From NCBI GenBank assembly GCA_949297305.1, contig CASFSG010000018.1, positions 4,901 through 68,900 of the forward strand: a stretch of DNA of 64,000 nt. Direction: 5' to 3'. The notes below the pieces were generated by a model. That model did not search any database, was not told where the DNA came from, and was given only the letters and a program-made list of their open reading frames with translations. The translations under genes were made by a program, and so were the position numbers. Shown here piece after piece: positions 2,300 through 53,920 of this stretch (the stretch's first letter is position 1; every line of letters begins with the position of its first letter). The DNA is from an uncultured bacterium (GTDB lineage: Bacteria; Bacillota_I; Bacilli_A; RFN20; CAG-826).

Positions 2300-2439
2300 T
2301 ATGCATTTTTTGAATTTATTTTAATCTATACCTTTTAGACACTAATATTTTATTTTGATATAAATAGCGATAGATTATTGCTTTTAAAATTTTAGATATG
2401 TTATGGTATGAATTATAAATAGCAAACAATCTAGTAAAT

Positions 2440-2467
2440 TTGACCCTGGGGGTGGGCTCATTATAAT
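2440..2467 (+). promoter_or_regulatory. Sigma-70-type promoter for the tasA-like/sipW operon
   Basis: The -35 is TTGACC (2440-2445), the spacer is 16 nt and unusually GC-rich (ctgggggtgggctcat), and the -10 is TATAAT (2462-2467). An ACACAT-N4-ATGTGT palindrome (2475-2490) lies in the 5'UTR and an AAGGAG RBS precedes the ATG at 2510. Confidence 0.55.
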
Positions 2468-2509
2468 ATAGACAACACATATAAATGTGTGGAAAAGGAG
2501 AAATAATTT

Positions 2510-3271
2510 ATGCAAAAATCTTACAAAAAAGCCCTAACAATTGGTATTGCTACCTTTAGTGCAGTGGCTTTAATTGCCACAGGTACTGCTGCCTTTATTC
2601 TTATGACGGGCGGAAGTGATTCATTGGACGGATCTGTCACAGTTGGTGAGGTTGAAGATAATAGTATCGTCGTTGATGCTTATATTGGTGATGCCGGTAC
2701 CAATTCGTTTAGTTATATTTTTGATTCAAAAGAAAACGATACAACTGGTCGCGTTCAATGGGACGGATCAACTCATGAGTCTTTAACTAACACAATTACT
2801 GTTTCGATTACTCCAGCCGCAGGTGCGGATATTACTCAAACAGATATTAATAACGGTTATTCATTAAGTTATACGGTGGAAGTTGTCGCTACTGGTGATG
2901 AAGCTACTACTTTTGCTAAGTATGTTACTACTAAAGGTGCATCGAGCGAAACAGCTGCTAGTGAAAAAGAATTTTTACAACTTACTAGTGGTACGTCGAC
3001 TGGCGATATTAGCAATGAAAATTTAGTAAGTGTCGGTGCATCTAACGCAATCACGATGCCTACTGAAACGAACACAACGACTACTTTTAGTGTAAATTTT
3101 GCTTGGGGTAGTTATTTCAATTATCAAAACCCATCGGAATATTATGATGGTGATGGTGCTAGTGTCTCTTTGGGCGATTCGACAACCGGCGTTAAAGGTG
3201 CTCTTAACAAATTACATTTATTAAACGGTATTAAGTTAAAGATTACCGTTAATGCTGTCAAAAATAGGTAA
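2510..3271 (+). CDS. Secreted TasA/CalY (camelysin)-like protein with a SipW-cognate-type signal peptide
   Basis: The N-terminus MQKSYKKALTIGIATFSAVALIATGTAAF...SLDGSVTVGEV resembles TasA/camelysin (K-rich start, hydrophobic core, GGGTWAAF...TGTLDL). The mature part is Thr/Ser-rich. The gene sits directly upstream of the sipW-like gene. Confidence 0.5.
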   Translation: MQKSYKKALTIGIATFSAVALIATGTAAFILMTGGSDSLDGSVTVGEVEDNSIVVDAYIGDAGTNSFSYIFDSKENDTTGRVQWDGSTHESLTNTITVSITPAAGADITQTDINNGYSLSYTVEVVATGDEATTFAKYVTTKGASSETAASEKEFLQLTSGTSTGDISNENLVSVGASNAITMPTETNTTTTFSVNFAWGSYFNYQNPSEYYDGDGASVSLGDSTTGVKGALNKLHLLNGIKLKITVNAVKNR

Positions 3272-3297
3272 TTTAGTGTTTGTTTGTTAATTAATAA

Positions 3298-3326
3298 ATG
3301 ACGCATGGAGTTAATCTATGCGTCAT
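3298..3326 (+). terminator. Stem-loop (partial terminator or attenuator) after the tasA-like gene
   Basis: ATGACGCAT (3298-3306) pairs with ATGCGTCAT (3318-3326) as a 9-bp perfect stem with an 11-nt loop. The downstream T-tract is weak, so read-through into sipW is likely. Confidence 0.4.
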
Positions 3327-3464
3327 ATGTGTTATTAAAATACCTAATTTTACTTCAAAAAAATTGTTCTTTATATATAATATAAAAACACCAAATTTTG
3401 CTTATGAAATCTAATAGGCGAGAAAGGAATTGATTGCAAGAAATATTTCGCGACATGAAAGATT

Positions 3465-4484
3465 ATGAGTAGTAGCCAAAAAGAACTTTTAGTGCTCATC
3501 GTCACCTCGTTGTGCGTCATTTCTTTAGCGATTGTTTTCACCCTTTTTTATCTTCATTATTATAAAAATTCCCTCGATGCGATTAAAGAAGGTCGCAGGG
3601 ACATCGAATTAATTGATGATAATATCAACGAACAAATCAAGGCAAAATCTAAAAAGCACAAAGCCTTTAAAATTGCGATGAAGGTTTTATCCTATTTAAT
3701 CAGCGCGATGGTCTTAGCGATTTTTATCATCGCTTTAATTAATCGTTTTAGCGGTGGTGATATCGTCGTTGGTAATTCGACAGTCATCGTCGTTAAGACC
3801 GGTTCAATGAGTGAAGTTAATGCCGCTAATAGGGAAGAATTAACTGGTTATGATAACCAAATCCCAACTTGGTCATTGATCGGAATTAGTAAGGTTAATG
3901 AAGAAGATTTAAAACCTTACGATGTCATTGCTTTTTTTGAAAGTAATTCTAATCAAATCATCATCCATCGCATCATTGATATTATGGAAGATGCAAATGG
4001 GCATTATTATGTAACTAGAGGCGATGCCTTAGCAAGTGAAGATGGTTATCATCCGCGTTATGAAGCGATTATTGGTCGCTATAACAACTTCCATATTCCC
4101 TATGTTGGTTTGTTTATCTACTTTTTACAGACTAATTCTGGGATTGTTACTATCTTATCAATTATTTACTGCTTAGTGCTCTTTGGTGTCTTAAGCGATA
4201 AAATCGCCAAAAAAGAAAAAGAAAGAAAAGATGAATTAATTTCTGTCATTGATATTGATTTAGCAATCAAAGAAGTCAATCACGATATCATCGAAAAGAT
4301 TTATTATCACGGTTATGTCTATTCATTTAAAAATAATGAGTTTATATCGAAAGAGAAAATTTTAGAAGGAGATGAACACCTACCATCTAAAAAGAACGAA
4401 TTGATTAAGGTTATTGAAAACCAAGACGAGACAAAAGTGATGTCGAGTATTATTGAGATATCTTTCAAGGAGGAAAATAAATGA
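3465..4484 (+). CDS. sipW: SipW/ER-type signal peptidase I (S26B)
   Basis: VVKTGSMSEV carries the Ser nucleophile, the IIIHRIID...YVTRGDA region carries the catalytic His as in SipW/archaeal-type SPase, and there is a C-terminal TM helix (GLFIYFLQTNSGIVTILSIIYCLVLFGVL). It has an extra N-terminal TM and a roughly 100-aa C-terminal extension. The start codon is uncertain because there is no clear RBS. Confidence 0.6.
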   Translation: MSSSQKELLVLIVTSLCVISLAIVFTLFYLHYYKNSLDAIKEGRRDIELIDDNINEQIKAKSKKHKAFKIAMKVLSYLISAMVLAIFIIALINRFSGGDIVVGNSTVIVVKTGSMSEVNAANREELTGYDNQIPTWSLIGISKVNEEDLKPYDVIAFFESNSNQIIIHRIIDIMEDANGHYYVTRGDALASEDGYHPRYEAIIGRYNNFHIPYVGLFIYFLQTNSGIVTILSIIYCLVLFGVLSDKIAKKEKERKDELISVIDIDLAIKEVNHDIIEKIYYHGYVYSFKNNEFISKEKILEGDEHLPSKKNELIKVIENQDETKVMSSIIEISFKEENK

Positions 4485-6292
4485 AAAAAGTTTACTTCAC
4501 GCGCAAGAATTTAATTGAACTAGGACTAGTTTTTCTCTTCTATGTCCTATTTTTATTTATCTATGTTTGCGTCGATGGCAAGCATCTATTTTTCGCTGAA
4601 GAAAATCCAATTGAATTACTTTATTTAGGATTTAGTTTCCCATCTATTTCTTTAGGAAGTGTCGGCTATTTACTCGGCTTCTTGTTTTGCATCTATGGCG
4701 TTCTTTATGACGCTGGATTAATTCTAATTAGAAGGTTAATTAAATTTAGACGCGAAAGATTTTTCTCTACTAAATGGGTTTTAATTAATGTTGGTTGGGG
4801 AGCGGTTTGTTTGCTTTTAGGCTTTGGCTTAGGGACTATTTTGGCTGCGATTATTAGCAAAGATAATCTTCAACCACTTTTGATGGCTTTTGGTGGTACT
4901 CTCTTATTAACAGTTCTTTTATATCTGCTTTTAGCTTTAGTTATCGGGGCAATCTTTATGCTCATCATCAACTTTAAAAATATCGATAAACCATATCGCT
5001 TCTTTAATATTAGCGAAGAAGAACAATATGAACGCAAAATCGATTTAGAAGAAGAAAAAGATGAAGCTAAACAAAATGACGTCGGGGCTTCCTTTGGTGA
5101 AAGTAGCCTTACTAGTATCAATAATGTCGTTAGTGGAGTAAGTGCTGCCTCACCTACTGAAAGTGTTGTCTCAACCGAATTTAAACTAGGCGATCGCGAA
5201 AAAGTTTTCCCATCTTTATCGATGATTGATCGCGATTATTCTGGTTTTGAAGAAGATAAATTGCCCGATATCGATATCACTTTAGAAAATCTATGTCTTT
5301 TGTTTAGAAATTATTTATGTAAGAAAGAAAATCTATATTTCGACATTGAAACAATTCGTAGTTTCATTTCTGCCTTAGGGACGAGTAGAATTGTCATTTT
5401 AGAAGGTTTAAGTGGTACTGGTAAATCATCTTTACCGCGTTATTTTGCTAAATTTATTTCTTCGGAGCCAACCTTTATTGCTGTCCAAACAACTTTTAGA
5501 GATAAATCATCCCTAATTGGTTATTTTAATGATTTTAGTCAAACATATAATGAGACGGATTTTTTAAAAGCCTTATATCGCGCAAATTATCAAAAAGATC
5601 ATCTCAATTTTATGGTTTTAGACGAATTTAATATCGCGCGTGTCGAATATTATTTTGCCGATTTCTTATCTTTGCTTGAATATCCAAAACAAGATTGGAA
5701 AATTCGCGTGATGAATTTGCCTTATGATTTTAACGCTCCGGTGATGCTCCATGATGGCTTATTAAAAATTGAAGAAAATACCTTCTTTATTTGCACGGCC
5801 AATAAAGATGATTCAACCTTCACAATTTCTGATAAAGTTTATGACCGCGCGATCATTTTAGACTTTGATGATCGCAATGAAGAATTTAGTGTCGATGAAG
5901 AAGTTAGTGAGATTCATTTAAGTTATCACCAATTAATGGATTTATTTAACGCTGCTAAAAAAGAAAAGAAAAATAATTTGACGAGTGATGATTTAAGAAG
6001 ATTTAAGATTTTAACCGATTTTGTTTTAGATAATTTTGATGTTGCCTTCGGTAACCGCGTCCTCAATCAAATTGAAAATTTCGTGCCGATTTATGTTAAA
6101 ACTGGCGGTAATAAAGCCGAAGCTTTAGATTTTATGTTCGCGCGCAAGATTTTATATAAGATTGAAGGTCGTTATGAAGATTATATTAAAAATAGTCTCA
6201 TCGCTTTGAAGAAGTTAATTGAAAAAACTTATGCAAAAGATGAATTTAAGATGAGCAAGCATCTCATCGAAAGGATGATTAAGAGATTATAA
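4481..6292 (+). CDS. Membrane-anchored McrB-like AAA+ (AAA_5) NTPase
   Basis: The first ~170 aa carry 4-5 predicted TM helices, followed by an acidic linker (EEEQYERKIDLEEEKDEAKQND) and an AAA+ core. The core has Walker A GLSGTGKSS, FMVLDEFNIARVEYYFADFLSLLE (compare McrB DEINRAN...F..LLE) and DKVYDRAIILDF (compare McrB DxALxRRF). A GGAGG RBS is present and the ATGA start overlaps the sipW stop. Confidence 0.6.
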   Translation: MKKVYFTRKNLIELGLVFLFYVLFLFIYVCVDGKHLFFAEENPIELLYLGFSFPSISLGSVGYLLGFLFCIYGVLYDAGLILIRRLIKFRRERFFSTKWVLINVGWGAVCLLLGFGLGTILAAIISKDNLQPLLMAFGGTLLLTVLLYLLLALVIGAIFMLIINFKNIDKPYRFFNISEEEQYERKIDLEEEKDEAKQNDVGASFGESSLTSINNVVSGVSAASPTESVVSTEFKLGDREKVFPSLSMIDRDYSGFEEDKLPDIDITLENLCLLFRNYLCKKENLYFDIETIRSFISALGTSRIVILEGLSGTGKSSLPRYFAKFISSEPTFIAVQTTFRDKSSLIGYFNDFSQTYNETDFLKALYRANYQKDHLNFMVLDEFNIARVEYYFADFLSLLEYPKQDWKIRVMNLPYDFNAPVMLHDGLLKIEENTFFICTANKDDSTFTISDKVYDRAIILDFDDRNEEFSVDEEVSEIHLSYHQLMDLFNAAKKEKKNNLTSDDLRRFKILTDFVLDNFDVAFGNRVLNQIENFVPIYVKTGGNKAEALDFMFARKILYKIEGRYEDYIKNSLIALKKLIEKTYAKDEFKMSKHLIERMIKRL

Positions 6293-7662
6293 TGCGCCTC
6301 AGCAATGCGATAAGTTTATTTAATCAAGCCTCATCGTTAAAAAGTTCGCTTTTAATCGCGAATAGTTTTGAAGATTATTTCGCTACGCTTAACAAGATGA
6401 AAGTTATAGATCTTAATCAAGATAGTTATCGCATTGATTTTTTGACATTACAAGAATTGAACTCTTTATTAAATACCATTTTATCGATTACGCGTCGCCA
6501 TTATCGCTCTTTTAAAAATAATGAAATCGTTTTGCGAAGTGAACTCGTTAGAAACTTCGACAATGAATCATTTATTAAAACGACGAAAGAGATGTCGTTT
6601 TGGCATCAAAAAGATTTTAGCGTCAAGCCGATGTGGGTTTATACTTATGAAATGGTCGATGATTTAAATACTTATGAAAATCGTCTTGTTATTTCCGCTT
6701 TAAGACGCATTGAATTAATTATTAAAAATTATGATTATTACTACGCGCATCAAGTCGCAATATTAGAAAATAATTTAAACAAAAACGATTTTAGTTACGC
6801 TTCCTTTTTATATAAAGATAATCGCATCTTAAATGCGAATTTATTATCGAAGGAAAATGCTTCATCTAAGGAGATTGATGAATATATCTTAAAACTTAAA
6901 GCGAAGATTAAGAAAATTCAAAATACGCCTTTTTATCTCGCGTTAAAAGATATTCCTCTAGTTATAGGAAAAGTAGCGATGACAAACATCTTTAAAGAAA
7001 ATCATCTTTATAACAAAGTCTATCGCTTTTATTATCAAACCCATCAATATTTAAATCAAACATTAGGCGATGAATCATTAATAGATTATAGTTATTTTTT
7101 AATCATTAAAACTTTAATCAAACAGGGCTATCAAATTAAACAAGATAATTTAGCATTTCATTTGTTAAATGAAAAATCCATCATTTTAGCGACACCGATA
7201 AGGTTTTTAGGAAAAGATTTTAATTTAGAATTATCTTATCTAAAGGAGAAAAAAGCCTTTTTAATTAAAGTTATTAATGCCTGGCGAAAGAGTGATGAAT
7301 CGACAAATTTAATCTATCTTCATTATAGCTTCAATGATAACGAGGTTAATTTAACTCCTTTAAAAAGTGGCGAATATAATAATATCTATTTATATAGTTA
7401 TGACAAATTATGGGTTTATCAAAACGATCAATGGTCAGTTGCTAAATTTTCTTTAGAACAAACCGATCAAGATATTATTGACATTATTTTAAAATCATTC
7501 ACTAATATCATCGAAGGTAAAGATGAAATATATGCAACTATTTGTCCTTATTGTGGTAGTCGTTATCTTTTAGAAGAAAATAAAAGCTACCATTGTTTAA
7601 ATTGTCACAAAAATTATGTGATTTTGCGCAAAAATCAAATCTGGATTAAAGAAAATATATAG
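6292..7662 (+). CDS. Zinc-ribbon protein in the McrC position (putative partner of the McrB-like NTPase)
   Basis: A TAATG stop/start overlap couples it to the upstream gene. The C-terminus has CPYCGSRYLLEENKSYHCLNCHK (CxxC-x15-CxxC). I could not recognise a PD-(D/E)xK nuclease motif with confidence. Confidence 0.35.
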   Translation: MRLSNAISLFNQASSLKSSLLIANSFEDYFATLNKMKVIDLNQDSYRIDFLTLQELNSLLNTILSITRRHYRSFKNNEIVLRSELVRNFDNESFIKTTKEMSFWHQKDFSVKPMWVYTYEMVDDLNTYENRLVISALRRIELIIKNYDYYYAHQVAILENNLNKNDFSYASFLYKDNRILNANLLSKENASSKEIDEYILKLKAKIKKIQNTPFYLALKDIPLVIGKVAMTNIFKENHLYNKVYRFYYQTHQYLNQTLGDESLIDYSYFLIIKTLIKQGYQIKQDNLAFHLLNEKSIILATPIRFLGKDFNLELSYLKEKKAFLIKVINAWRKSDESTNLIYLHYSFNDNEVNLTPLKSGEYNNIYLYSYDKLWVYQNDQWSVAKFSLEQTDQDIIDIILKSFTNIIEGKDEIYATICPYCGSRYLLEENKSYHCLNCHKNYVILRKNQIWIKENI

Positions 7663-7672
7663 GTAAAAATGT

Positions 7673-8425
7673 ATGGAAAATAGCGAAAAACAGGTGGCGA
7701 TAAAAATTGAGCATTTAAAAAAATCTTACGGCAAAAAAGAAGTTTTGCACGATTTAAATCTAGAAGTCTATCGCGGCGAACTCTTTGGCTATGTTGGAAA
7801 AAATGGCGTCGGTAAATCGACGACAATCGATTGTTTAATCGGAGCGAAGAAATTTGATGAAGGCCATATTTATCTTGGTGGCTATGAGATTAATAAAGAA
7901 CCTTTCCGCGCGAAAAAACAATTCGGCTATGTTAGCAGTGAGCCAGTGACATATGAAATGATGACTGGTTATGAATATTTGCAGTTTATTGGCTCAGTGT
8001 ACGCTATTAGTGATGAAGCCTATAAAAATAATCTTGCCTATTTATCTAATAAATTTGATTTACCATCGCGCGACTTGAATAGTGTCATCTCTTCCTATTC
8101 GCATGGGATGAAGCAAAAATTGTGTCTAATTGCTTCTTTAATGCATAATCCGGAGATTTGGATTTTAGATGAACCGACTGTTGGCTTAGACATTATGGTC
8201 TTTGAAACATTAAAGAATATGATGATGGAATTTACAAAACATGGTCGAACAATTTTTATTACTTCCCATAATATCGATTTAGTTGCTAAGATTTGTGACC
8301 GCGTCGCATTGATTAATAACGGGAAAATTGAAAAGATTGTCGATTTAAAAAACGATCCCGACAAACGTTATCAATTGCATAAAATATTTTTAGATATGTA
8401 CGCTTATAAGGAGAAAAATGCTTAG
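7673..8425 (+). CDS. ABC transporter ATP-binding protein
   Basis: It has Walker A GKNGVGKST, the signature YSHGMKQKL, Walker B ILDEPTVGLD and the H-loop TSHNI. Confidence 0.85.
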   Translation: MENSEKQVAIKIEHLKKSYGKKEVLHDLNLEVYRGELFGYVGKNGVGKSTTIDCLIGAKKFDEGHIYLGGYEINKEPFRAKKQFGYVSSEPVTYEMMTGYEYLQFIGSVYAISDEAYKNNLAYLSNKFDLPSRDLNSVISSYSHGMKQKLCLIASLMHNPEIWILDEPTVGLDIMVFETLKNMMMEFTKHGRTIFITSHNIDLVAKICDRVALINNGKIEKIVDLKNDPDKRYQLHKIFLDMYAYKEKNA

Positions 8426-10016
8426 TTTAATTAAAAAAGAATTTAAATTAAATCCCTTCTTTTTAATTCCTAATAAAAAGAACTGGTTTTCTTTTATTAT
8501 CTTTTTCATTTTACTAATTGGCTTAATTTTATTAGAATCATTCATTTTTAATACTCTTTATCATCGTTTTGATGAATACGAAAATGGCGCTTTTGCTTTT
8601 AGCAATATTTTCTTAATTATCATCGCTTTTATTTCGTTATTAATTGCCATTTTTTATATTCAAAAAATATATTTTAATCAATTAGATATGTTTTTAATCA
8701 TCAATAAGCCTTTAGATTATGTCAAAATTTTATTATCGAAATTTCTATATGCTTTATTAGTTAATTACTTATCGTCCTTGCTCTTTACTTTGCCACTTTT
8801 TATCCTTTTAGCGACCTATCAAGAGGTTTTTAACTTCTTCACCTTCTTTATTGGTTTATTCTTCCCCTTGTTTTTATCTATCTTTAATCTTGGCCTAGCT
8901 TTAATTTTAGCGGTTCCCATTCAATATGCTTATAAATTCTTAAAGCAATTCCCTTTGTTACAATTATTAGTAGTTGCCATCTTTTTAGGTTTCTTCTGCT
9001 ATGGCTATTCCCTCGTTCTCAATTTGTTTATTGATTTAATTAATAACAATTCTTTAGGTACTTTATTTTCTGTCGATAGTTTAACGCGAATGACTTATCT
9101 TTCGACGCATTTTTATCCTTATTCTTTGCTGACGAATGGCTTTATTCATTATCATTATGGTCTATCCTTTACCGTCTTTTTATTAATCGCTATTAACCTA
9201 ATCTTGTTAGGTCTAATTCTCGTTGGTTTATTTTACCTAAAGCTCAACCAATTTACTTTTGTTTTAAAGCACCATAATAAAAGTCAATATCCCATTTTAA
9301 AAGATACGAAAGCAATCATTAAAAAAGAGTTTATTTTATTATTTAAAGAGAACAATACGACATATTCTTTCACCTCTTTATTAATTTTAGAACCAGTTTT
9401 AACTTATTTAGTAATCAACGCGATTAATGTCGCTCTTTTAAGAGGTAATCTATCAATTTATTTAGGTATTATGCCTTATTTATTAAATAATATCGATTTG
9501 TTAATTGCTCTATTATTTTCTAGCGTCATCTCTTTAAATGCAATCAACATTTATCAAAGTGAAAATAAAGCGATTAGAGTGATGAAATTTATCCCCTATT
9601 CGTTATATAAACATATCTATATTAAATTATTAATTCCTTATTTTGTCAGCGCGATAGCGACTATCATCGCCTTTATTATTTTAGTTTCTACCTCGTTAAT
9701 TGGAGTAGACACTTTCTTGATGGGTCTTTTGTTTGCCTTAGCAATTAATTTTGTTTTGATGGTCTTACTAATGCGCGCGCAATTAAGAAATGATAAATAT
9801 AAAAAGGTTAATAATTCTTTACCTTCTTTTATTTCATTTCTCGTTCCTTTAGCGATGGTGGTAATCAACGTTTTATTAGGTGCTTTTTTAGGCTTAAAAA
9901 ATATTTACACTTATTTAATTGATTTATTCATTATCGCTTTGCCTTTAGGTTATGTTATTTATTATTTAATCAAACGTTTTAAAGATGATGTTTACGCTTT
10001 GGAGGTCATCAATTGA
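8418..10016 (+). CDS. Polytopic membrane protein, putative ABC permease partner (unusually long)
   Basis: Roughly 12 hydrophobic segments, an AAGGAG RBS, and a start that overlaps the ATPase stop. I could not assign a family. Confidence 0.5.
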   Translation: MLSLIKKEFKLNPFFLIPNKKNWFSFIIFFILLIGLILLESFIFNTLYHRFDEYENGAFAFSNIFLIIIAFISLLIAIFYIQKIYFNQLDMFLIINKPLDYVKILLSKFLYALLVNYLSSLLFTLPLFILLATYQEVFNFFTFFIGLFFPLFLSIFNLGLALILAVPIQYAYKFLKQFPLLQLLVVAIFLGFFCYGYSLVLNLFIDLINNNSLGTLFSVDSLTRMTYLSTHFYPYSLLTNGFIHYHYGLSFTVFLLIAINLILLGLILVGLFYLKLNQFTFVLKHHNKSQYPILKDTKAIIKKEFILLFKENNTTYSFTSLLILEPVLTYLVINAINVALLRGNLSIYLGIMPYLLNNIDLLIALLFSSVISLNAINIYQSENKAIRVMKFIPYSLYKHIYIKLLIPYFVSAIATIIAFIILVSTSLIGVDTFLMGLLFALAINFVLMVLLMRAQLRNDKYKKVNNSLPSFISFLVPLAMVVINVLLGAFLGLKNIYTYLIDLFIIALPLGYVIYYLIKRFKDDVYALEVIN

Positions 10017-12466
10017 TGTCAAAAAAAGCCCTGCCTTTATTATTAGCTTTACCATTTGTCATCTCGCTGGTGTCAATTTATGTCATCGACTATAATGTCA
10101 TCCAAGTGAGTGAAGATTTGACTGATATCCGTCTACCATATCAGCAAAACGCTGGATTTTTAATTAATACAAAACACGAATTAAATGCGACCCCACTAGG
10201 CAGTCAAAAGGCTCTTTCTGATTTAGGAAACGCTTTAATTTGGACTAGTAGCAACGAAGATATTGCGACTATTCTTCAAGAAGATGATAAATATTATTTA
10301 GTTGCTAACTTAGAAGGGGAAGCGACAATCAGCGTCTCAAATCTTCGTCAAACTATTTCGCGTTCCTTCAATGCAATTATTTATGATGATGGGGCAATTA
10401 TCATTAACCCTAAGGAAAATTATTCTAATGCGATGATCGATGATGTTCAATATTTTGGTGAATATGATTTTAATGGTGATTATAGTGGATCTATCGATAA
10501 AACATTAGGCTTAGATATCGAGGTTCTTCCTAGCGATTTAACCCCAAGCTTAATCGTCAAAGAAACTAGCATGAATATCGCCTATATGCAAGAGAGCATC
10601 TCCTTTGGTTTAATTCGTAATCCAGTTGAAGAAGCTTACATCACTTTTGCACTTGCCGGTTCAAAAATTGAATCCACCTATGAATTTAAAATCGTTAAAG
10701 ATGGTTATAACATCTATTCTTATAATGATTTGCTCCATGCGACGAATTATTCTATTAGTGGCGAAATTGCTGTTATGCAAGTTAATTTAGAATCATTAGA
10801 AAAAACTTATCAAGTCGATGAAGATGGTCGCTATCTTAACCAATTGCTAAACGAAGATACTTTATTATTTGGAAATTATGATTTCGCACAGAAAAAATTT
10901 AATTTTGCGAAGGAAATTTATCGCTATGAAACGACTTATAACGATAATTTTATTAGCGAATGGAATAAGAAATACCCCGATGAATTAAGCCGAATTGACA
11001 ATCGATTAAATGTGGGTATTCATGTTCAAAAATCATTTTACGGGAACGGTTTTATTATCAACGGGCACAATTTGACTTATCCTAGCGGTCGACAAATCAC
11101 TAGCGAGGGCGAAGCACCTTTATTAATGAAAGATGATTTGTTCCGTGGGCCATTACCTTTTGTCGCTTTAGGTAATCATAACTACTCATCTAATCTCATT
11201 ATCGAGGCTTATGGTCAAGATAATTCCTTAATTTATCTTGATGGTGACAATATTACCATCAACGATTTAAATATTCGCTCGTGCGATTTTGGTGATAATT
11301 TAAACAATTTAAATACGGTTGGGACTTGCATTGATGTTTTAGGTGATAATATCACGATTAAAAATAGTCAAATTCGCAACGCGAAAAATAATTTGCGAGT
11401 TTATTCCTCGAAGAATTTTCTTTTAGATAATTCGCTTTTAACGAACGCACGACAATTTTTATTAGCAATTGGGACGAATGAATTCGCCAAAATTGATCAT
11501 CAAAAAGAAATTAATATTCATTCTTTAGATAACAAGGTGATTAAAACGACGATTGATAATTATTTCGCTCGCGAAGGAATTGCAGATAATCTTCTAATGG
11601 TGATGGCTTCTTATGGTTTGATGGAAAATAATATCACTTATGATAATTTGATGGTTTATCTAAATGAATTAGATAGCTTATTAAACGATCAAGGCTATTT
11701 GGTGGAAGAAGATGGCTCTTTATATCGCTCAAGCGTCAATGTTAACGATACTTATTTTTACCAAAGCGGTATCGCTTCGATATCTTTAGAGACGATGTTT
11801 AATGGCCCATATATTTATAATAATGTTCCATCTTTAATTAATGATTTATTGGGTGGCGGTGGCTTATATCAAATGTTAGATATGCATCATCTTTCAGGTG
11901 TTAATTACCCTAGTGAATTAACTCTAGGTGGCAACACAAAATTTTATGATTATAAAGACATTGAAAATTTAGATGTTTCTTCAATCATTTCACAAAATAT
12001 TGTCAATGTCTTAAAGACTTTGTTTGGGGAAGAATTTGATGAAATGTTTGGAAATGTCGATGAAGTTAATGTCGATAACTTCTTCCCATATCGCTCGATC
12101 ATTAAAGAAAACGCCGATAAATTGAATTTTGCTACTTATGAGTTAGATGAAAATAGTGGTGAATTAAAGATGCATGTCAATACCCCTATCGTCTATTATG
12201 GCGGTGGTTTAAATTTATCAAAAGTGATTGATAATTCTATTTCTAGCAAGTACTTAAGTTCGACTTTTAATGTTGATATCGTCGAATATTCTTTGAATAA
12301 TTTAAGCGGGAATGTTGGCGAGATGTTATTTACCTTGCTCGCTAGATGTGTCCCGATTGCTATTGGCTTTCAGCCTTTTAAAGTGCAAGGCTATTTAGAT
12401 GGATATTTATATGGGGAGACCCCTTCAATAAACGATTTAAAAATAAATGCGGAGGAAAATTTATGA
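10013..12466 (+). CDS. Large secreted/anchored protein with right-handed parallel beta-helix repeats
   Basis: An N-terminal signal anchor (KKALPLLLALPFVISLVSIYVI) is followed by repeated N-I-T-I-x-N/D-S segments (NITINDLNIRSC, NITIKNSQIRNA, LLDNSLLTNA) typical of PbH1 beta-helices. The true start is probably ATG 10016 (GGAGG at 10001), overlapping the upstream TGA. Confidence 0.5.
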   Translation: MMSKKALPLLLALPFVISLVSIYVIDYNVIQVSEDLTDIRLPYQQNAGFLINTKHELNATPLGSQKALSDLGNALIWTSSNEDIATILQEDDKYYLVANLEGEATISVSNLRQTISRSFNAIIYDDGAIIINPKENYSNAMIDDVQYFGEYDFNGDYSGSIDKTLGLDIEVLPSDLTPSLIVKETSMNIAYMQESISFGLIRNPVEEAYITFALAGSKIESTYEFKIVKDGYNIYSYNDLLHATNYSISGEIAVMQVNLESLEKTYQVDEDGRYLNQLLNEDTLLFGNYDFAQKKFNFAKEIYRYETTYNDNFISEWNKKYPDELSRIDNRLNVGIHVQKSFYGNGFIINGHNLTYPSGRQITSEGEAPLLMKDDLFRGPLPFVALGNHNYSSNLIIEAYGQDNSLIYLDGDNITINDLNIRSCDFGDNLNNLNTVGTCIDVLGDNITIKNSQIRNAKNNLRVYSSKNFLLDNSLLTNARQFLLAIGTNEFAKIDHQKEINIHSLDNKVIKTTIDNYFAREGIADNLLMVMASYGLMENNITYDNLMVYLNELDSLLNDQGYLVEEDGSLYRSSVNVNDTYFYQSGIASISLETMFNGPYIYNNVPSLINDLLGGGGLYQMLDMHHLSGVNYPSELTLGGNTKFYDYKDIENLDVSSIISQNIVNVLKTLFGEEFDEMFGNVDEVNVDNFFPYRSIIKENADKLNFATYELDENSGELKMHVNTPIVYYGGGLNLSKVIDNSISSKYLSSTFNVDIVEYSLNNLSGNVGEMLFTLLARCVPIAIGFQPFKVQGYLDGYLYGETPSINDLKINAEENL

Positions 12467-13548
12467 AAAAATTACGAACTTTAATGTTGAGTTTTTTAGC
12501 GTTGTTATCTTTAGGCACTTTATCTTTAACTAGTTGCAGTAGTTTTTTAAAAAGCGATGTTGTCATGATTGATGATATTATCGCTAGTTATGATAGCGAA
12601 GGTAATCTAGTTTTAACAATCACTTTCACCGATGATGCCGAAGAGCCAATTCAAGTGAAAGTTCCGCAAGGTAAAACGGGAAATGGTATTGCCAATATCA
12701 CCCATACACCTAGCGATAATAATTCGACCATTATCACGATTACTTATACTGATAGTTCAATTAGTCCAACGACATTTGAAGTTTTAAATGGTTCTTATAT
12801 TGTTTCAATTACTGAAAATATTGATCCAATTAGCGGCAACAATACAATTGAAGTTACCTTAAGTAATGGAGAAACATTTTCTTTTGTAGTTCCGCGCGGC
12901 GAACCAGGAAAAGATGGCGTGTCAATTACTGATATCACTAGCGAAGTTTTAGAAGATAAATCGACCATCATTACAATTACTTTATCAGAAGGCGATCCTG
13001 TTACAGTAACGATTCCTTCTCCGCTTGATGGTAAAGACGGTCGCGGGATTGATTATATTACGATGACAACTTCTACTGAAGGTGATGAATACATTTTAAC
13101 TATTTATTATGATCAAGGTGATTCGCAATCATTTAGTTTTGATAAACCTAATACTTGGCATAGCGGTAACACCAGCCCGCTTAATTCATTGGGTATCGAT
13201 GGCGACTTTTATTATTGGACGAGCCAATATCGCATTTATCAAAAGATTGCTGGGGAGTGGGTTTTAGTCGCAGATTTAGGTTCAACCCCCGAACTAGAAT
13301 CTTATGTCGTTTCTTTTGATTTAGTTAGCGAAGAAGCGGTGATGAATGGGAATATGGCTTATGAAATACCATATGGTCACTATTTCTATAGTGAAGGTTA
13401 TGATTTGCCGATTCCTTATTTAGCAAATTATAATTTCTTAGGGTGGTATACTTCTAAAGATGATAAACCGACAAGCGGCATCTTTACCGATACGACCCCA
13501 GTCTATCGCAATATGACTTTATACGCGCGTTGGGAGGAAATCATTTAA
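12463..13548 (+). CDS. Lipoprotein with three G-x-x-G-x-D-G collagen-like modules and a C-terminal Listeria-Bacteroides (Flg_new) repeat
   Basis: The lipobox is LTSCSS. The three modules are GKTGNGIANITHT, GEPGKDGVSITDIT and GKDGRGIDYITMT. The C-terminus YNFLGWYTSKDD...TLYARWEE matches the Flg_new repeat. The ATGA start overlaps the upstream stop. Confidence 0.55.
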   Translation: MKKLRTLMLSFLALLSLGTLSLTSCSSFLKSDVVMIDDIIASYDSEGNLVLTITFTDDAEEPIQVKVPQGKTGNGIANITHTPSDNNSTIITITYTDSSISPTTFEVLNGSYIVSITENIDPISGNNTIEVTLSNGETFSFVVPRGEPGKDGVSITDITSEVLEDKSTIITITLSEGDPVTVTIPSPLDGKDGRGIDYITMTTSTEGDEYILTIYYDQGDSQSFSFDKPNTWHSGNTSPLNSLGIDGDFYYWTSQYRIYQKIAGEWVLVADLGSTPELESYVVSFDLVSEEAVMNGNMAYEIPYGHYFYSEGYDLPIPYLANYNFLGWYTSKDDKPTSGIFTDTTPVYRNMTLYARWEEII

Positions 13549-13555
13549 AAAAGCA

Positions 13556-14239
13556 ATGAAATATAAGAAATCGCTTTTTATTGTCGCTACATTCTTTTCA
13601 TCTTTAGCCCTTTTAAGTGCAGGTTTTTCTGCTTTTACAATTATTAATAGCGAAGATGAAATTAGTGGTGAGATCTTAGCGGCGAATGTCTTAGCGGTTA
13701 ATTATGTCACTAGCGGCGACGATATCACTAATGGCATAAAAAGCTTTAAATATAACGAATATGGTTTTGAGCAAGAAACTACCTACAGTAATAAAACCTA
13801 CAAATATTGGTCGAAAACTGAAGACGTTAATTTAGGGTTATATTTTTACGTTAATTGTGCGCGAACATCAACTTTTAATATTTCCTTTAGTGTCAACTTT
13901 AAGCAGAATAACACCTCGTTAAATTTTATTAATTCTTATTATAAAAGTGATGATGGTTATGGTGCTGCTTGTTATGGTGATGGTAGTTTAACTAATTTAA
14001 CTAATAGTCAAAATCTTCTTAATAGCGCGACAACTATTAACGACAACTCATTAACGACAACATTTACCATCAATAATTTAGAACTAAACGCTCATAGTAA
14101 TTACTTTTTTGCTGTCAATTATACTTTTGGTAATTTTGTTAGTAGCGATTATTCGTCAGTAAAAAACTTTCTAGATTCAGGTAACATTTTTACTTTTTCT
14201 ATCAACGCGACAGCGAGTGAACTAGGAGGCAATAGTTAA
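13556..14239 (+). CDS. Secreted protein with a SipW-cognate-like signal peptide
   Basis: The N-terminus MKYKKSLFIVATFFSSLALLSAGFSAFTIINSEDEISGEILAANVLAV resembles the TasA-class signal region. The mature part is Asn/Ser/Thr-rich. Confidence 0.45.
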   Translation: MKYKKSLFIVATFFSSLALLSAGFSAFTIINSEDEISGEILAANVLAVNYVTSGDDITNGIKSFKYNEYGFEQETTYSNKTYKYWSKTEDVNLGLYFYVNCARTSTFNISFSVNFKQNNTSLNFINSYYKSDDGYGAACYGDGSLTNLTNSQNLLNSATTINDNSLTTTFTINNLELNAHSNYFFAVNYTFGNFVSSDYSSVKNFLDSGNIFTFSINATASELGGNS

Positions 14240-14240
14240 A

Positions 14241-16535
14241 ATGAAATATCGCAAGACTGTTGCATCTTTAATCCTTTCCTCACTAGCTTTATCTTTAACA
14301 ATAAGCGGTTTAGGTACATGGGTAGTTTTAACTAACGAACGAACATTTAAACCCAATACTTCAAGCGATAAAGCTGTTTGTTATATCGAATCGACGGGAG
14401 TATATTATAACGATATTGAGCCAGCGATCGCTCGGGCAAATTATTTAGCAAATACTTTAGGCGGCGATCAAAGAATAGTTGTTATTCCTGATTCCATAGT
14501 GACTTTAAACGAATCGATGTCATTAAATGCGAATGTTGATTTATTGTTGCCATATAACACTTATTATGAGACGGATGTCGACCAATCGAGTGGTAATCGC
14601 ATTGAAATTAAAGATGGCACAATGACAGAAATTAGAGAAGAAAATGGCCGTTATATTGCTAAATATCTTTACTCTTATGGAAAGGACACTAGTGGAAATC
14701 CTAAATATCCTTATGATCCAGATAACAAATATAGTTTTGATGAGTTAGATGAATATGACGATTATAAAACAACATTTGCTGATAATTATTCAAACAACCT
14801 TTTATCATCTACTTTAATAATTGACAATAATGTGACTTTAACATTAAAAGAAAACTCACAATTAGTTGTATATGGCCAACTAGGACGCGTTGGTAATAAT
14901 TTAAGCGGTTTCACTAGTGGTTATTATTCACAAGTTATTTTGTTAGAAAACGCAAAAATTAATGTCAATGATGGGGCAATATTAGATTGTCGCGGTTATA
15001 TAAAGGAAGGTTATTCGGCAATTCCTAGTGATAAGAAGGACAACAATGGTAGTCAAATAATTAATCATGGAAAAGTTTATTCGCCATTTGTAATCTATGA
15101 TTATCCTGGTGGTAGTGCGACTATTGCTATTTACGCTGCCAGTCGAGAATGTCCATTTACGATGTATGATATGCCCAATATTCATCCTACGATTAATACA
15201 TATATCGATGGTGAAATTTATGGTATGGTGGATTTATATACTGGTTATGAAAAATTGGGTTTTGCGAATGTAGTTGAAATAACAACATATCCTCAGCATA
15301 ATGCTGCCACACTTTCAATTTTTAGTAGTGATACATCTATTGGACCGCTCTTAGCTATGGAAGACGACATAAGCGAAACAAGTGAGCCTAAAATTATTAG
15401 CAAATATCACCCTAATAAGTATTCAAATTTCAATAATATTTATATTGGAATTAATGAAGATTTGTCCTCTAGCGGCCGTAGTGAAATAAACCAAGATGGT
15501 GGCACTACATCGATAAAAGTTCAAACAAATTCATCGTTTAATTATTTATCTATCGGCTTACCTGTTTTAGGAAAAAATGTTGTTATTAAAACCGAAGGTG
15601 TTTATTTTCCGCTTCCGTGGCAATATGACATTACCTTCGATAATGTGACATTTAATGCTCGCGGTGACATTAAATTAATGCAAGGAAGTAAAGTAAGGTT
15701 TATTAATAACTCGAATGCTTCAATTTCGGAAAAACTTGTTTTATATAAACGATCAAATATTTTTACTGGTTATCCTTGCTCGCAATCTCCTGATGCCGAA
15801 CTTATCTTAAGTGATTCTAATCTAACTATTGCTTCTTCTAGTACATTTGGTGGCATGGTGTCGACAACCGGTGGTTCTTATATTACCGTTTTATCGAATT
15901 CTTTATCAACTAGTACAACTGAAACAAGTTCTGGCAAGCTCGATTCTAGTAAGCTGGGCTTTAATGGACCTACATTCGCGGTAGGAACTTGGTATCTTGG
16001 TTCTAGTTCATCGATTGATGGAATTATTGATGATTTAGGTGCACTTTGCACGATTAGTAATAAAACTGATATAAGCGGAATCGCAGCGCAGACGCGAATA
16101 AATAATGAAAACAATATTCAAAACCTAGTTTCTTTAAAAGAATATCAAAGTGATGCAAACACTGTGTTTTTTAATGAATACGATTTACCAACCATTAGTT
16201 TTAAGATTGTGACAAATAAGGATTTAGGTGAATTTTGGTTTGAAGGATGGAATCTTGTTTACGCTAAGTCGCATTTCACCATTAATGTCTATATTAATGA
16301 AGTTTCTAATACACCGTATTTCACACGATACATCACCGGTGAAGATGGAGTGGAACATGGTTTCACAATAATCGAAGATTCTTATATCGAAATTGTAGGT
16401 GATCAAGACATGGATTCTATTAAATCAATTTCTGGTTTGCCTGGTGTTTCTTATAACAATTTTACAACTGGTAAATTCAAAGTTAGCGATGGAGCTGAAA
16501 TTAAAATTACGGCACAAGTCGGCAATCAACATTAA
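14241..16535 (+). CDS. Large secreted protein with a SipW-cognate-like signal peptide (beta-helix-like, Asn/Ser-rich)
   Basis: The N-terminus MKYRKTVASLILSSLALSLTISGLGTWVVLTNERTF matches TasA-type GGGTWAAFND. A GGAGG RBS is present. It is the last gene before the nadE promoter region. Confidence 0.5.
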   Translation: MKYRKTVASLILSSLALSLTISGLGTWVVLTNERTFKPNTSSDKAVCYIESTGVYYNDIEPAIARANYLANTLGGDQRIVVIPDSIVTLNESMSLNANVDLLLPYNTYYETDVDQSSGNRIEIKDGTMTEIREENGRYIAKYLYSYGKDTSGNPKYPYDPDNKYSFDELDEYDDYKTTFADNYSNNLLSSTLIIDNNVTLTLKENSQLVVYGQLGRVGNNLSGFTSGYYSQVILLENAKINVNDGAILDCRGYIKEGYSAIPSDKKDNNGSQIINHGKVYSPFVIYDYPGGSATIAIYAASRECPFTMYDMPNIHPTINTYIDGEIYGMVDLYTGYEKLGFANVVEITTYPQHNAATLSIFSSDTSIGPLLAMEDDISETSEPKIISKYHPNKYSNFNNIYIGINEDLSSSGRSEINQDGGTTSIKVQTNSSFNYLSIGLPVLGKNVVIKTEGVYFPLPWQYDITFDNVTFNARGDIKLMQGSKVRFINNSNASISEKLVLYKRSNIFTGYPCSQSPDAELILSDSNLTIASSSTFGGMVSTTGGSYITVLSNSLSTSTTETSSGKLDSSKLGFNGPTFAVGTWYLGSSSSIDGIIDDLGALCTISNKTDISGIAAQTRINNENNIQNLVSLKEYQSDANTVFFNEYDLPTISFKIVTNKDLGEFWFEGWNLVYAKSHFTINVYINEVSNTPYFTRYITGEDGVEHGFTIIEDSYIEIVGDQDMDSIKSISGLPGVSYNNFTTGKFKVSDGAEIKITAQVGNQH

Positions 16536-16612
16536 ACTAAGTTGCTTATATTAAAAAATATTTAATCGTCTTTTACATAAATATGTATATAATTATGTAG
16601 GAGGCTTTTATT

Positions 16613-18721
16613 ATGAAAATAATTCCTATTAAAGATTTAAGAGATACTAAAAAAATCGTTGAATTAACCCATGCATCATCGCCTATTTTTGTTACTAAGA
16701 ACGGCTATGAAGATTTAGTTATTTTAACTCACAATGATTACCAGCAATTATTAAAGAAAAGTGTTATTGATGTTAAAAAGAATAATCTATCTTTAAATAA
16801 CAATATTATTCCTCTTAAAAATCCAAATGAACATTATGGATTTATTAAAGTTGGAGCGGCTAATTTTTTGGGGGATGTCGCGAATGTTGAATATAATTAT
16901 CAAGAAATTATTAAGCTCATAATAGAAGCTAATAATCGTAAAATACAAGTCTTAGTGTTCCCTGAATTATCGTTAACTTCATATACTGCTAACGATATGT
17001 TTTTTCATGACGATTTATATCAAGAAAACATTAAGTATCTTTTGAAAATCAAAGAATTTAGTAAAGATTACAATATGCTAATTGTGATTGGGTCTTACTT
17101 AAGAAAAGATAATTATTTATATGATGTAGCGATTGCATATTTTAAAGGCGAGATATTGGGTGTTGTGCCTAAATCTAATCTTTCTTTTTATGAGCAGAGG
17201 TATTTTGAGTCTTCGCCATCTAATAATGATGAAATTACAATTGGAGATCGAAACTATCCTTTTGGCACTAAATTAATTTTTGTTGATCAATATTGTTTAG
17301 ATTTAAAAATTGCGATTGAGTTAGGTAACGATTTATTTAGCAATCTTTCTCCTTCAGAGTTTCATTCCTCTTATGGTGCGACTATCATTTTAAATTTAAG
17401 TGCGAAAGAGGAAACTATTAACGAAGAACAAAGAAGAAGAGAAATAATTAAAACAATTTCCTACAAAGAAAATAGTGCCTATATTTATTGTTCTGCTAGT
17501 TATATGGAAAGTACGACGGACGCTCTTTATAGTGGCCATTCCCTCATTTGTGAAAATGGTTTGCTTTTAAAAGAAAATGAATTATTTAGCGCAGGTTTGC
17601 TCGATAGCGACATCGATCTTCAAACTTTAATTAATGCCCGACATAAAAACGACTTTGTTAATCTTTCATCTGATAACGAATATATGTATATTCCTTTTAA
17701 AATGGAAATAAATCAGCCTGATTTGACTAGAAAAATATCGCAAAACCCATTTATTTTATCTTTTTTTGATAGTGGGAAAAAGAATTATCAAACCATTATA
17801 AAGATGCAATCTTATAGTTTATTAAAAAGGTTTAAAAGCGCTAGGGCAAAGAAATTAATCGTTGGCTTAAGTGGTGGTTTAGACTCCACTTTAGCGTTTT
17901 TAGTTTCCTTAGAAACATTAAAATTATTAGATTTAGATAGCAAACATTTAATTGCTATTTCCTTACCTTCTTTTGGTACTTCTAAACGAACCTACTCTAA
18001 TGCGGAGAAACTCGCAAAAAGGATGAATGTTGATTATCGCGAAATCAATATTTCAGAGACGATTAAATCGCATTTTAATGATATAAATCATCGCATCGAT
18101 AACCATAATGCATGCTATGAAAACGCACAAGCTCGTGAAAGAACGCAAGTTTTACTCGATATTGCTAATGATGAAAATGCCTTGATGGTTGGTACTGGCG
18201 ATTTAAGCGAATTGTGTTTAGGGTGGTGTACATATAACGGCGATCATATGTGTAATTATGGCGTTAATGGCTCTTTACCCAAAACGGTTATCCGCGAAAT
18301 AGTGCGTTTATATGCTTTAGACCATCAAGAAATTAAAGATGTCCTTTTAGATATTGTGCTTACACCTATTTCGCCAGAATTGCTTCCTCCTAAAGAAGGT
18401 CAAATTGCTCAAAAAACTGAAGATAGTGTCGGGCCTTATGAACTTCACGATTTCTTTATTTATTATTTCTTAAAAGAGCATTTTTCGATGAAAAAAATAC
18501 TCTATTTAGCTAAAATTGCTTTTCGCGATAAATACGATGAAGAAACAATTAAAAAATGGTTGACTATTTTTATTAAAAGATTTTTTGCAAGCCAATTTAA
18601 AAGATCTTGCTCGGTCGATGGAATTAGAATTGGCGAAGTCGATGTCTCTCCGCGCGCTGGCTTAAGGATGAGCAGCGACACATCTTGTCAAACATTTATC
18701 GATGAGCTAGAAAAAGAATAA
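16613..18721 (+). CDS. nadE: Glutamine-dependent-type NAD+ synthetase (CN-hydrolase domain plus NAD synthetase domain) with an N-terminal Phd/YefM-like extension
   Basis: VFPELSLTSY (Glu) and VPKSNLSFYEQRYFE (Lys) match the nitrilase-domain motifs, and GLSGGLDSTLAF is the PP-loop. The first ~50 aa (KIIPIKDLRDTKKIVELTHASSPIFVTKNGYEDLVILTHNDYQQLLKK) resemble a Phd/YefM antitoxin fold. Confidence 0.85.
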   Translation: MKIIPIKDLRDTKKIVELTHASSPIFVTKNGYEDLVILTHNDYQQLLKKSVIDVKKNNLSLNNNIIPLKNPNEHYGFIKVGAANFLGDVANVEYNYQEIIKLIIEANNRKIQVLVFPELSLTSYTANDMFFHDDLYQENIKYLLKIKEFSKDYNMLIVIGSYLRKDNYLYDVAIAYFKGEILGVVPKSNLSFYEQRYFESSPSNNDEITIGDRNYPFGTKLIFVDQYCLDLKIAIELGNDLFSNLSPSEFHSSYGATIILNLSAKEETINEEQRRREIIKTISYKENSAYIYCSASYMESTTDALYSGHSLICENGLLLKENELFSAGLLDSDIDLQTLINARHKNDFVNLSSDNEYMYIPFKMEINQPDLTRKISQNPFILSFFDSGKKNYQTIIKMQSYSLLKRFKSARAKKLIVGLSGGLDSTLAFLVSLETLKLLDLDSKHLIAISLPSFGTSKRTYSNAEKLAKRMNVDYREINISETIKSHFNDINHRIDNHNACYENAQARERTQVLLDIANDENALMVGTGDLSELCLGWCTYNGDHMCNYGVNGSLPKTVIREIVRLYALDHQEIKDVLLDIVLTPISPELLPPKEGQIAQKTEDSVGPYELHDFFIYYFLKEHFSMKKILYLAKIAFRDKYDEETIKKWLTIFIKRFFASQFKRSCSVDGIRIGEVDVSPRAGLRMSSDTSCQTFIDELEKE

Positions 18722-39868: not shown

Positions 39869-39905
39869 AAGTAATCTAATTCTTTAAATAAAGGAGTAGC
39901 AAATT

Positions 39906-41917: not shown

Positions 41918-41922
41918 AAAAG

Positions 41923-43680: not shown

Positions 43681-43681
43681 A

Positions 43682-46435: not shown

Positions 46436-46438
46436 ATA

Positions 46439-49745: not shown

Positions 49746-49751
49746 TTAATT

Positions 49752-51434: not shown

Positions 51435-51437
51435 ATT

Positions 51438-53909: not shown

Positions 53910-53920
53910 GGCGAGGTTAA

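Follow-up and report, generated by a model that had tools for sequence, protein, structure and literature searches.

In the tapA-sipW-tasA operon of Bacillus subtilis, and likewise in the calY/tasA loci of the B. cereus group, the gene for an endoplasmic reticulum (ER)-type signal peptidase lies beside those of its substrates. TasA fibres form by strand donation from one subunit to its neighbour, the donor strand being residues 28–38 right behind the SipW cleavage site, and TapA has a segment like it at its N-terminus (PMC9674648). A SipW-dependent, polymer-forming matrix protein is also encoded together with sipW in an anaerobic Firmicute, Clostridium perfringens (sipW-bsaA; PMC7395162), and the beta-sandwich pilins of archaeal bundling pili and Tafi (AbpA, TafE) are joined by strand donation with no chaperone-usher (PMC9245690, PMC12337348). 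A further system, CoCoPALM, was named by Bell et al. in one paragraph (section 7) without a component list or substrates; it links McrB and McrC homologues to a signal-peptidase-family gene, and its hallmarks are an NxD variant of the GTPase motif, shortened by one residue, an FtsB-like transmembrane (TM) helix plus coiled coil on its McrB, and coiled coils on its McrC (PMC11090510). Here we describe a ten-gene cluster with features of these systems, located at positions 2440–16535 of a 64,000-nucleotide stretch (the window) of contig CASFSG010000018.1 from an uncultured bacterium (assembly GCA_949297305.1; Bacillota_I, RFN20, CAG-826). The genes are called, in order, A, S, B, C, T, P, H, L, X and Y.

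The cluster consists of ten open reading frames (ORFs) on the + strand from 2510 to 16535, at the coordinates and with the N-termini given in an earlier annotation made from the sequence alone (the original prediction). Eight of the ten genes encode envelope or secreted products, and region 2440–16535 is a single operon encoding a conserved envelope system (Table 1). The chain is coupled, as had been claimed, by ATGA overlaps at 4481 (the stop of S and start of B) and 12463, by TAATG at 6292 and by TTGATG at 10013/10016, where the true start of H is probably the ATG at 10016, not 10013. P starts (8418) 8 nt inside T, the remaining junctions are gaps of 1–10 nt, and the 193-nt gap between A and S is the sole exception to this tight spacing. 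The cluster lies outside the curated family libraries searched; Pfam and NCBIfam models matched nothing in six of the ten proteins and reached B and C only through the generic domains AAA_5 and DUF2357. We put at roughly 0.5 the probability that it encodes a surface polymer or adhesin system which depends on a dedicated peptidase, resembles TasA/TapA/SipW and carries extra machinery. For comparison we used 80 related loci from species-representative genomes, identified below by L numbers.

S is a signal peptidase of family S26B, as originally predicted. It scored 62.6 bits against the archaeal/ER-type signal peptidase I model TIGR02228 (curated cut-off 51.85), and its top sequence match in the PDB was human SEC11A. 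Residues S114 (in GSMS), H168 (in IIHRI), D187 and D193 are invariant among 19 S homologues, a pattern which identifies the predicted catalytic type as Ser/His, not Ser/Lys. Hydropathy places TM segments at 8–26, 74–92 and about 216–244, the second of which precedes the catalytic Ser. A LexA-like fold with a topology other than that of a signal peptidase was considered for this protein and is excluded. Members of the S subfamily are ~330 amino acids (aa) long and contain, in order, an extra first TM helix, a cytoplasmic loop with GxRDIELID, the anchor and catalytic domain, and a C-terminal part made of a TM helix and a conserved cytoplasmic IYYKGYxYxF domain; the extra helix and the two cytoplasmic parts set the window peptidase apart from those of TasA systems. 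Against the Bacillus SipW equivalog NF046067, S reached 66 bits (positions 2–160) with a cut-off of 190 bits, and we read it from its sequence as the same type of enzyme as Bacillus SipW, not its orthologue. Longer S-like proteins (397–438 aa) occur in three loci (L024, L040 and L078) with one A-like gene and without the B-to-L genes, an arrangement which may represent a pared-down or otherwise different form of the system.

The candidate substrates of S share an N-terminal signal of fixed geometry. In A (K7-x17-G25-T-A-A-F29), X (K5-x17-G23-F-S-A-F27) and Y (K5-x17-G23-L-G-T-W27) the last Lys precedes the motif Gly by exactly 18 residues. As a BLASTP alignment of A with X was limited to the first 44 residues, an iterative family profile was built from the ORFs called in the 80 loci. 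This profile takes in 198 proteins; the window A matched it at E 3.6e-39, and X matched the A-family profile along its entire sequence (E 7.3e-11, profile positions 27–224), hence A and X are real paralogues. Y lies outside the A/X family. The common N-terminus claimed for the three proteins was borne out by a search for G[FLMYTIV][ASG][ASTG][WF].. within the first 70 residues, with the motif found in 182 of the 198 family members compared to 7 of 483 unrelated ORFs from the same loci. Five of these seven are Y-type large proteins or truncated starts beside the cluster, and a sixth is a short fragment at the position of X.

The family consensus is K-x17-G-F-A-[SA]-W-[VI]-I followed by a strand-like G-N-[IV]-x-V-x-x-V, of which the window signals are more degenerate versions. 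Among 176 family members aligned on the invariant Gly (position 0, 100%), K occupies −18 in 80%, hydrophobic or small residues fill −17 to −1, and the following positions are F at +1 (93%), A or S at +2 (99%), S, A or T at +3 (97%), W at +4 (90%), V or I at +5 (72%) and I at +6 (64%). Further conserved positions are G at +16 (44%), V at +20 (43%) and V at +23 (38%). Identity to the window protein is mostly 11–40%, and conservation of the signal extends to ~+25, some 20 residues beyond the possible cut; as it continues past any possible cleavage site, this segment probably has a role in the mature protein. The A copy nearest S carries a conserved cytoplasmic n-region, L-T-R-[NK]-S-Y-K-R-K (L007, L008, L011, L017, L020 and others), which reads Q-K-S-Y-K-K in the window A and is missing both from X-type proteins and from the distal A copy. 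This pattern suggests a second, cytoplasmic recognition element.

The A/X family is widespread, with 1,561 clusters matched at E ≤ 1e-3 and 299 at E ≤ 1e-10 among 1.84 billion representative proteins; among the 150 matches listed, nearly all are 190–280 aa, and ~15 are shorter fragments. Scans of the window proteins and 148 homologues turned up no Pfam or NCBIfam model for this family, and with the signal removed the family matched zero solved proteins in PDB sequence and profile searches. PDB searches with A, the A/X family (full-length and mature-only), H, P and Y gave nothing informative; S retrieved SEC11A, B retrieved McrB and C retrieved zinc ribbons, and these were the only informative matches of the cluster proteins. 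Y has one distant homologue (L055) and no family or PDB match, and it proved unrelated to H by hhalign; in other loci, proteins of 1,000–1,900 aa with the same signal adjoin an X-type gene. Hydropathy showed no TM segment at the C-terminus of A, X or Y, no LPXTG motif was seen on reading their sequences, and a Pfam/NCBIfam scan of the cluster proteins detected no sortase family.

The gene set is conserved together with the signal. Scored over 76 loci, the order A(1–6)-S-B-C-T-P-H-L was complete from S to L in 53 (counts for each gene are in Table 1), and many of the incomplete loci are on short contigs or close to the end of one. Median intergenic gaps were −1 to 4 nt, and about 67 loci have S, B and C side by side. 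The McrB-like pair and the ATP-binding cassette (ABC) exporter, which had been interpreted as insertions into a biofilm operon, are instead core genes that keep the same order in these 53 loci. Two A genes 5′ of S are the commonest state (47 loci), and five or six tandem A paralogues occur in five loci (L063, L065, L070, L076 and L080). In the 23 loci where a family member comes directly after L, that gene is of the X type; the gene after X had a signal-like N-terminus by eye in 12 of 12 cases and by the relaxed motif pattern in 8 of 12. Clostridia-labelled loci have the X-Y pair upstream instead, with Y-type proteins of 1,180–1,930 aa. Flanking genes vary between loci.

Table 1. Genes and other features of the cluster in window coordinates, with the number of related loci in which a homologue was found.
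Feature	Coordinates	Strand	Length (aa)	Description	Loci with homologue
Promoter-like site	2440..2467	+		Sigma-70-type TTGACC, 16-nt G+C-rich spacer, TATAAT	
Inverted repeat	2475..2490	.		ACACAT-ATAA-ATGTGT directly 3′ of the −10 box	
A	2510..3271	+	253	Secreted subunit of A/X family; candidate main structural subunit	62
Hairpin	3298..3326	+		12-bp stem between A and S; terminator-like; −18.9 kcal/mol	
S	3465..4484	+	339	ER/SipW-type (S26B) signal peptidase	75
B	4481..6292	+	603	Membrane protein with cytoplasmic McrB-like AAA+ (GTPase-type) domain	73
C	6292..7662	+	456	Cytoplasmic McrC-like partner	72
T	7673..8425	+	250	ABC transporter ATPase, DrrA/ABC-2 type	66
P	8418..10016	+	532	Polytopic permease	68
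H	10013..12466	+	817	Exoprotein with N-terminal signal anchor	67
L	12463..13548	+	361	Repeat lipoprotein	60
X	13556..14239	+	227	Divergent A paralogue; candidate minor or adaptor subunit	
Y	14241..16535	+	764	Large secreted protein; candidate distal adhesin or cargo	

The likeness to tapA-sipW-tasA, on which the original prediction centred, holds for the dedicated peptidase and the several substrates with one signal, and finds no support, by the models run here, for membership of the TasA family. TIGR04088 and the Peptidase_M73/TasA models, run on A, X and Y, gave zero matches at E ≤ 1, likewise for the 148 homologues, and neither the three proteins nor the homologues matched the TasA equivalog NF046066 or the BsaA model TIGR04090. 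As a positive control we used four annotated TasA-family genes from Bacillus plasmids, located with a TasA sequence that served as a probe only; their products scored 40.4–50.6 bits against TIGR04088 (cut-off 19). On three of the four plasmids (L083, L084 and L086) this gene adjoins hfq, AbrB/SpoVT-type regulator and ArsR genes, and sipW is absent within 2.5 kb of it; these proteins presumably use the chromosomal SipW.

The signals themselves share one geometry. In the plasmid TasA-family proteins the last Lys (K6) lies 18 residues before the third Gly (G24), followed by T-Y-A-Y-F, so that +3 is small, +4 aromatic and +5 hydrophobic; a G-T-L-D-L strand comes next. The window proteins and TasA systems have in common several substrates with a shared signal and first mature residues, including K at −18, G at 0 and the aromatic at +4. 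Aligned by hhalign to the four TasA-family proteins, the A/X family matched over 27 signal-peptide columns only (probability 1.4%), in the same K(−18)/G(0) register. PDB searches with A/X family profiles did not retrieve the TasA chains. AlphaFold models from shallow alignments were beta-rich and poor for both A (predicted local distance difference test, pLDDT, 48.5) and X (56.2), with a confident N-terminal helix in X (residues 1–31, pLDDT 75–92). In a Foldseek search of the PDB with the low-pLDDT model of A, TasA entry 5of2 came second (E 0.086, probability 0.35, the maximum in the list; TM-score 0.28/0.34) and TasA 5of1 sixth, none of the matches being significant. We read the system as functioning like a SipW-cognate system, with TasA-family kinship that is at most very remote; these searches do not place the predicted structural proteins in the TasA family.

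Other described systems differ in further respects. The TasA systems differ from the window in that their mature domains have no detectable homology to the window proteins, which are negative for TIGR04088, and in that core genes B, C, T, P, H, L and Y have no counterpart in a TasA operon. The sipW-bsaA locus resembles the cluster in its pairing of peptidase and polymer-forming protein; unlike it, the window proteins and their homologues have no TIGR04090 match, and the gene content is different. The archaeal pilins are alike only in part: there is no significant sequence match, the TafE match being weak (2 of 148 homologues, best E 0.00069), and the AbpA/TafE systems rely on other secretion signals and lack McrBC and ABC genes.

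The McrB-like protein B had the highest conservation of the five cluster families aligned full-length (mean column identity 57%). It comprises four to five N-terminal TM helices (hydropathy), a charged linker and a nucleoside triphosphatase (NTPase) domain which matched AAA_5 at 22.3 bits (cut-off 22). A profile of this domain retrieved only Escherichia coli McrB from the PDB (E 2.8e-5), and the domain matched the PADLOC defence-candidate model PDC-M26A at E 7.9e-40. GLSGTGKS, VLDE and TANKDD are conserved, and the invariant NKDD aligns without gaps to NTAD of E. coli McrB. In its partner C, DUF2357 (PF09823) was matched by 17 of 37 homologues (best E 5.7e-7); the window C falls below detection of this domain and aligns with the matching homologues. 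C ends in a CPxC...CxxC zinc ribbon whose four Cys are invariant in the 37 homologues, and the invariant D...(D/E)xK of a PD-(D/E)xK nuclease is absent across the same set.

This combination is close to CoCoPALM, as both have McrB and McrC homologues linked to a signal-peptidase-family gene, a membrane-anchored McrB homologue, and a McrC homologue with DUF2357 and no working nuclease. The two differ in the anchor, which consists of four to five TM helices in the window B versus an FtsB-like TM helix plus coiled coil. The N-K-D-D of B can be read as NxD followed by D, the CoCoPALM motif, yet it aligns gaplessly with the NTAD of E. coli McrB. Our literature search found no paper on this cluster, the CoCoPALM paragraph being the sole prior mention and its announced follow-up not being found; nothing was found on SipW with RF39 or on PDC-M26. 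At the start of its second TM helix (window 4640–4720, residues ~55–80), B carries a motif like the substrate signal, LGSVGYLLGF in the window and of PGFAGWIL or GGTAGFVMV type in homologues, with the strict pattern in 12 of 74 (L022, L025, L065, L010, L028 and others). It could be a pseudo-substrate, a peptidase docking element shared with the substrates, or chance. The membrane part of the B family (window 4790–5130, profile 103–216) also gave a weak match to the flagellar export protein FlhB (8z5s, E 2e-4) over the TM-plus-linker region, which is probably compositional.

The remaining core proteins are an ABC pair and two surface proteins. T matched PF00005 at 88.9 bits and TIGR01188 at E 7.5e-50, and P has ~12 TM helices by hydropathy and zero Pfam, NCBIfam or PDB matches. 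The signal anchor claimed for H was recovered as a TM helix at 2–30 with invariant P14 and F15. The suggestion that H is a beta-helix protein found weak support, with Pfam Beta_helix matched in 2 of 37 homologues (best E 0.0012); H homologues also gave weak Big_2 (Ig-like) matches. L is a repeat lipoprotein as described, with lipobox LTSC, repeats of roughly 45 aa (self-alignment score 85 compared to 32 ± 5 for shuffled sequences) and a C-terminal Listeria-Bacteroides repeat (TIGR02543, 26.9 bits, cut-off 20.95).

How a surface polymer or adhesin system of this kind would work can be outlined from these features. The precursors of A, X and Y would enter the membrane through Sec and be held there by a hydrophobic segment of fixed length, and S would cut them between G(0) and +4, on the far side of +2 or +3. 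The conserved strand at the N-terminus so exposed would then serve as the assembly handle, most simply as a donor strand as in TasA and TapA, and beta-sandwich subunits would polymerise at the cell surface. In this polymer the main subunit would be A, with X as adaptor and Y placed distally as an adhesin or enzyme. A platform or anchor at the outer face may be formed by H and L, while B-C and T-P may provide energy or gating from the cytoplasmic side. The variation of A from one to six copies, which we liken to pilin paralogues, was counted in favour of this outline. Several points weigh against it. The mature domains have no sequence or profile link to TasA, camelysin, TafE, AbpA or any solved protein; TasA-type fibres require no NTPase or ABC transporter, such that the simple model leaves six conserved genes without a role; the hydrophobic span of 24 residues could stay in place as a membrane anchor and not be a cleaved signal; and the cleavage site is a prediction from sequence. 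Tentatively, and with less conviction, we also entertain an undescribed Gram-positive filament or secretion machine in which a membrane-anchored McrB-type GTPase ring, a nuclease-less McrC, the ABC transporter and the ER-type peptidase would export and assemble pilin-like subunits with a large tip protein. Within this proposal the McrBC parts would have been recruited from restriction systems, and the subunits would be marked by the new cognate signal.

If subunits do not polymerise at all, the signal may instead mark A, X and Y for a sorting or secretion machine composed of S, B-C, T-P, H and L, with cargo which is monomeric or forms a coat. Such a system, the main rival, seems unlikely to us, yet it would account for the presence of one signal on unrelated mature domains (the small A/X proteins and Y-type proteins of 760–1,900 aa) and for the six conserved machine genes that self-assembling fibres leave unexplained. 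The constant K(−18)-G(0) spacing resembles a membrane ruler between cytoplasmic and outer-face recognition sites, SYKRK is conserved in the n-region of A1-type proteins, the GH43 and GH2 genes of the window make surface enzymes plausible cargo, and the logic is like that of exosortase, archaeosortase or the type IX secretion system. However, the loci examined contain two or three cargo types per genome, always beside the machine, whereas known systems usually disperse their cargo genes; tandem A paralogues and the conserved early mature strand are also a better match to subunit–subunit contacts. We consider it improbable that the hydrophobic segment is instead kept as the core helix of a type-IV-pilin-like filament, extracted and assembled by B-C and the ABC transporter. 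Like type IV pili and archaeal pilins, the cluster has paralogous small subunits with an N-terminal hydrophobic segment, here of constant 24-residue span, and a membrane-associated NTPase among its core genes; the X model has its confident N-terminal helix, and the top PDB match of the full-length profile was the archaeal type IV pilin PilA2 (8gi2, E 0.0088). This match was lost once the hydrophobic segment was removed. The likeness is confined to that helix, which drives the match, and we rejected a relation of A/X to PilA2. Furthermore, the cluster has no prepilin-peptidase (class III) site, A24 peptidase, or PilB-type or PilC-type gene, and the S26B active site would lie at the outer face, by the small residues that end the hydrophobic stretch.

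A true tapA-sipW-tasA-type biofilm operon with divergent TasA/camelysin subunits and foreign genes inserted is more doubtful still. The S26B peptidase, a signal geometry equal to that of real TasA-family signals and the two TasA structures in the Foldseek list all speak for it. Set against these are the negative TIGR04088, TasA, BsaA and Peptidase_M73 results alongside a positive control, an hhalign match that stops at the signal peptide, the low score of S against the SipW equivalog, and the core status of the supposedly inserted genes. We give least credence, very little indeed, to the idea that the cluster is an anti-phage or conflict system which derives from McrBC and acts through effectors in the membrane and at the surface. 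The McrB-like and McrC-like proteins, the PDC-M26A match of B and the differences in flanking genes among loci would fit such a role. The PADLOC scan, however, returned only the B NTPase domain and generic ABC matches, Pfam/NCBIfam scans found no methyltransferase, HEPN or other nuclease in the cluster, and gene order is constant in at least 53 species-level genomes and not patchy. We rejected this reading because C lacks the nuclease motif and the gene content is that of the envelope.

The fixed-order cluster is common in uncultured gut Bacillota, whose surface and attachment to host or glycans remain essentially uncharacterised. Should the surface polymer or adhesin reading hold, the principle of a dedicated signal peptidase with cognate substrates would extend to a new family of ~1,500 clusters, and the cluster would be a concrete case of McrBC proteins outside nucleic-acid restriction, so far only hinted at by CoCoPALM. 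The fixed-geometry signal is usable as a key with which to search metagenomes for the cargo of such systems.

Upstream of A, the G+C-rich promoter spacer and the palindrome noted in the original prediction are both present. The promoter-like site (TTGACC-16-TATAAT) agrees with the consensus at 11 of 12 positions and is the top-scoring sigma-70-like site in 2200–17000. Site and palindrome are near-invariant in two close relatives, where the palindrome reads CCACACAT-AA/AT-ATGTGTGG, while the DNA farther upstream has diverged. The palindrome may, speculatively, be an operator or a hairpin in the 5′ untranslated region; the evidence for an operator is weak, since only three close sequences were compared. 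The proposed control by SinR found no support, as neither a sinR-like gene nor a SinR box was seen and the palindrome has no link to SinR. The hairpin between A and S is a possible attenuator between A and the peptidase gene, and of the 24 related loci in which A and S are 40 nt or more apart, 19 have a hairpin of −10 kcal/mol or stronger.

The closest loci come from gut metagenome-assembled genomes (MAGs) labelled “uncultured Bacilli” or “uncultured bacterium”, and the farther ones are labelled Mollicutes, Acholeplasmatales, CAG:324, CAG:568, Candidatus Onthovivens, Christensenellaceae and Candidatus Scatosoma. Some carrier MAGs (L016, L029, L030, L011, L043 and L050) have odd titles, such as Escherichia coli, Prevotella sp., Bacteroidales, Staphylococcus sp. 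CAG:324, Clostridium sp. CAG:568 and Acidiphilium sp. CAG:727, and their public bin names are unreliable for taxonomy. As TGA is a stop codon and tRNA-Trp has the anticodon CCA, the host is not a code-4 mycoplasma. The Bacilli carriers are, from the named MAGs, what we take to be RF39-type lineages. Most species of RF39 and related orders are predicted to keep peptidoglycan (PMC10868615). A search for cell-wall genes in the rest of the window returned only glycan-use and housekeeping genes, which are uninformative on the wall, and the wall-less cell type assumed in the original prediction found no support.

Positions 38252–55703 of the window form a glycan-utilisation block. This includes a 538-aa ORF without a Pfam match (38252–39868), two BPD-type permeases, a GH2 enzyme, an unusually long (917-aa) MalK-like ABC ATPase with TOBE, and three GH43 enzymes; the block fits a gut polysaccharide degrader. 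A few kb 3′ of the cluster (21259–23648) lies the gene for a 450-aa lipoprotein without a known family, and behind it that for an AglJ/PpgS-like polyprenyl-phosphate glycosyltransferase, which could glycosylate surface proteins.

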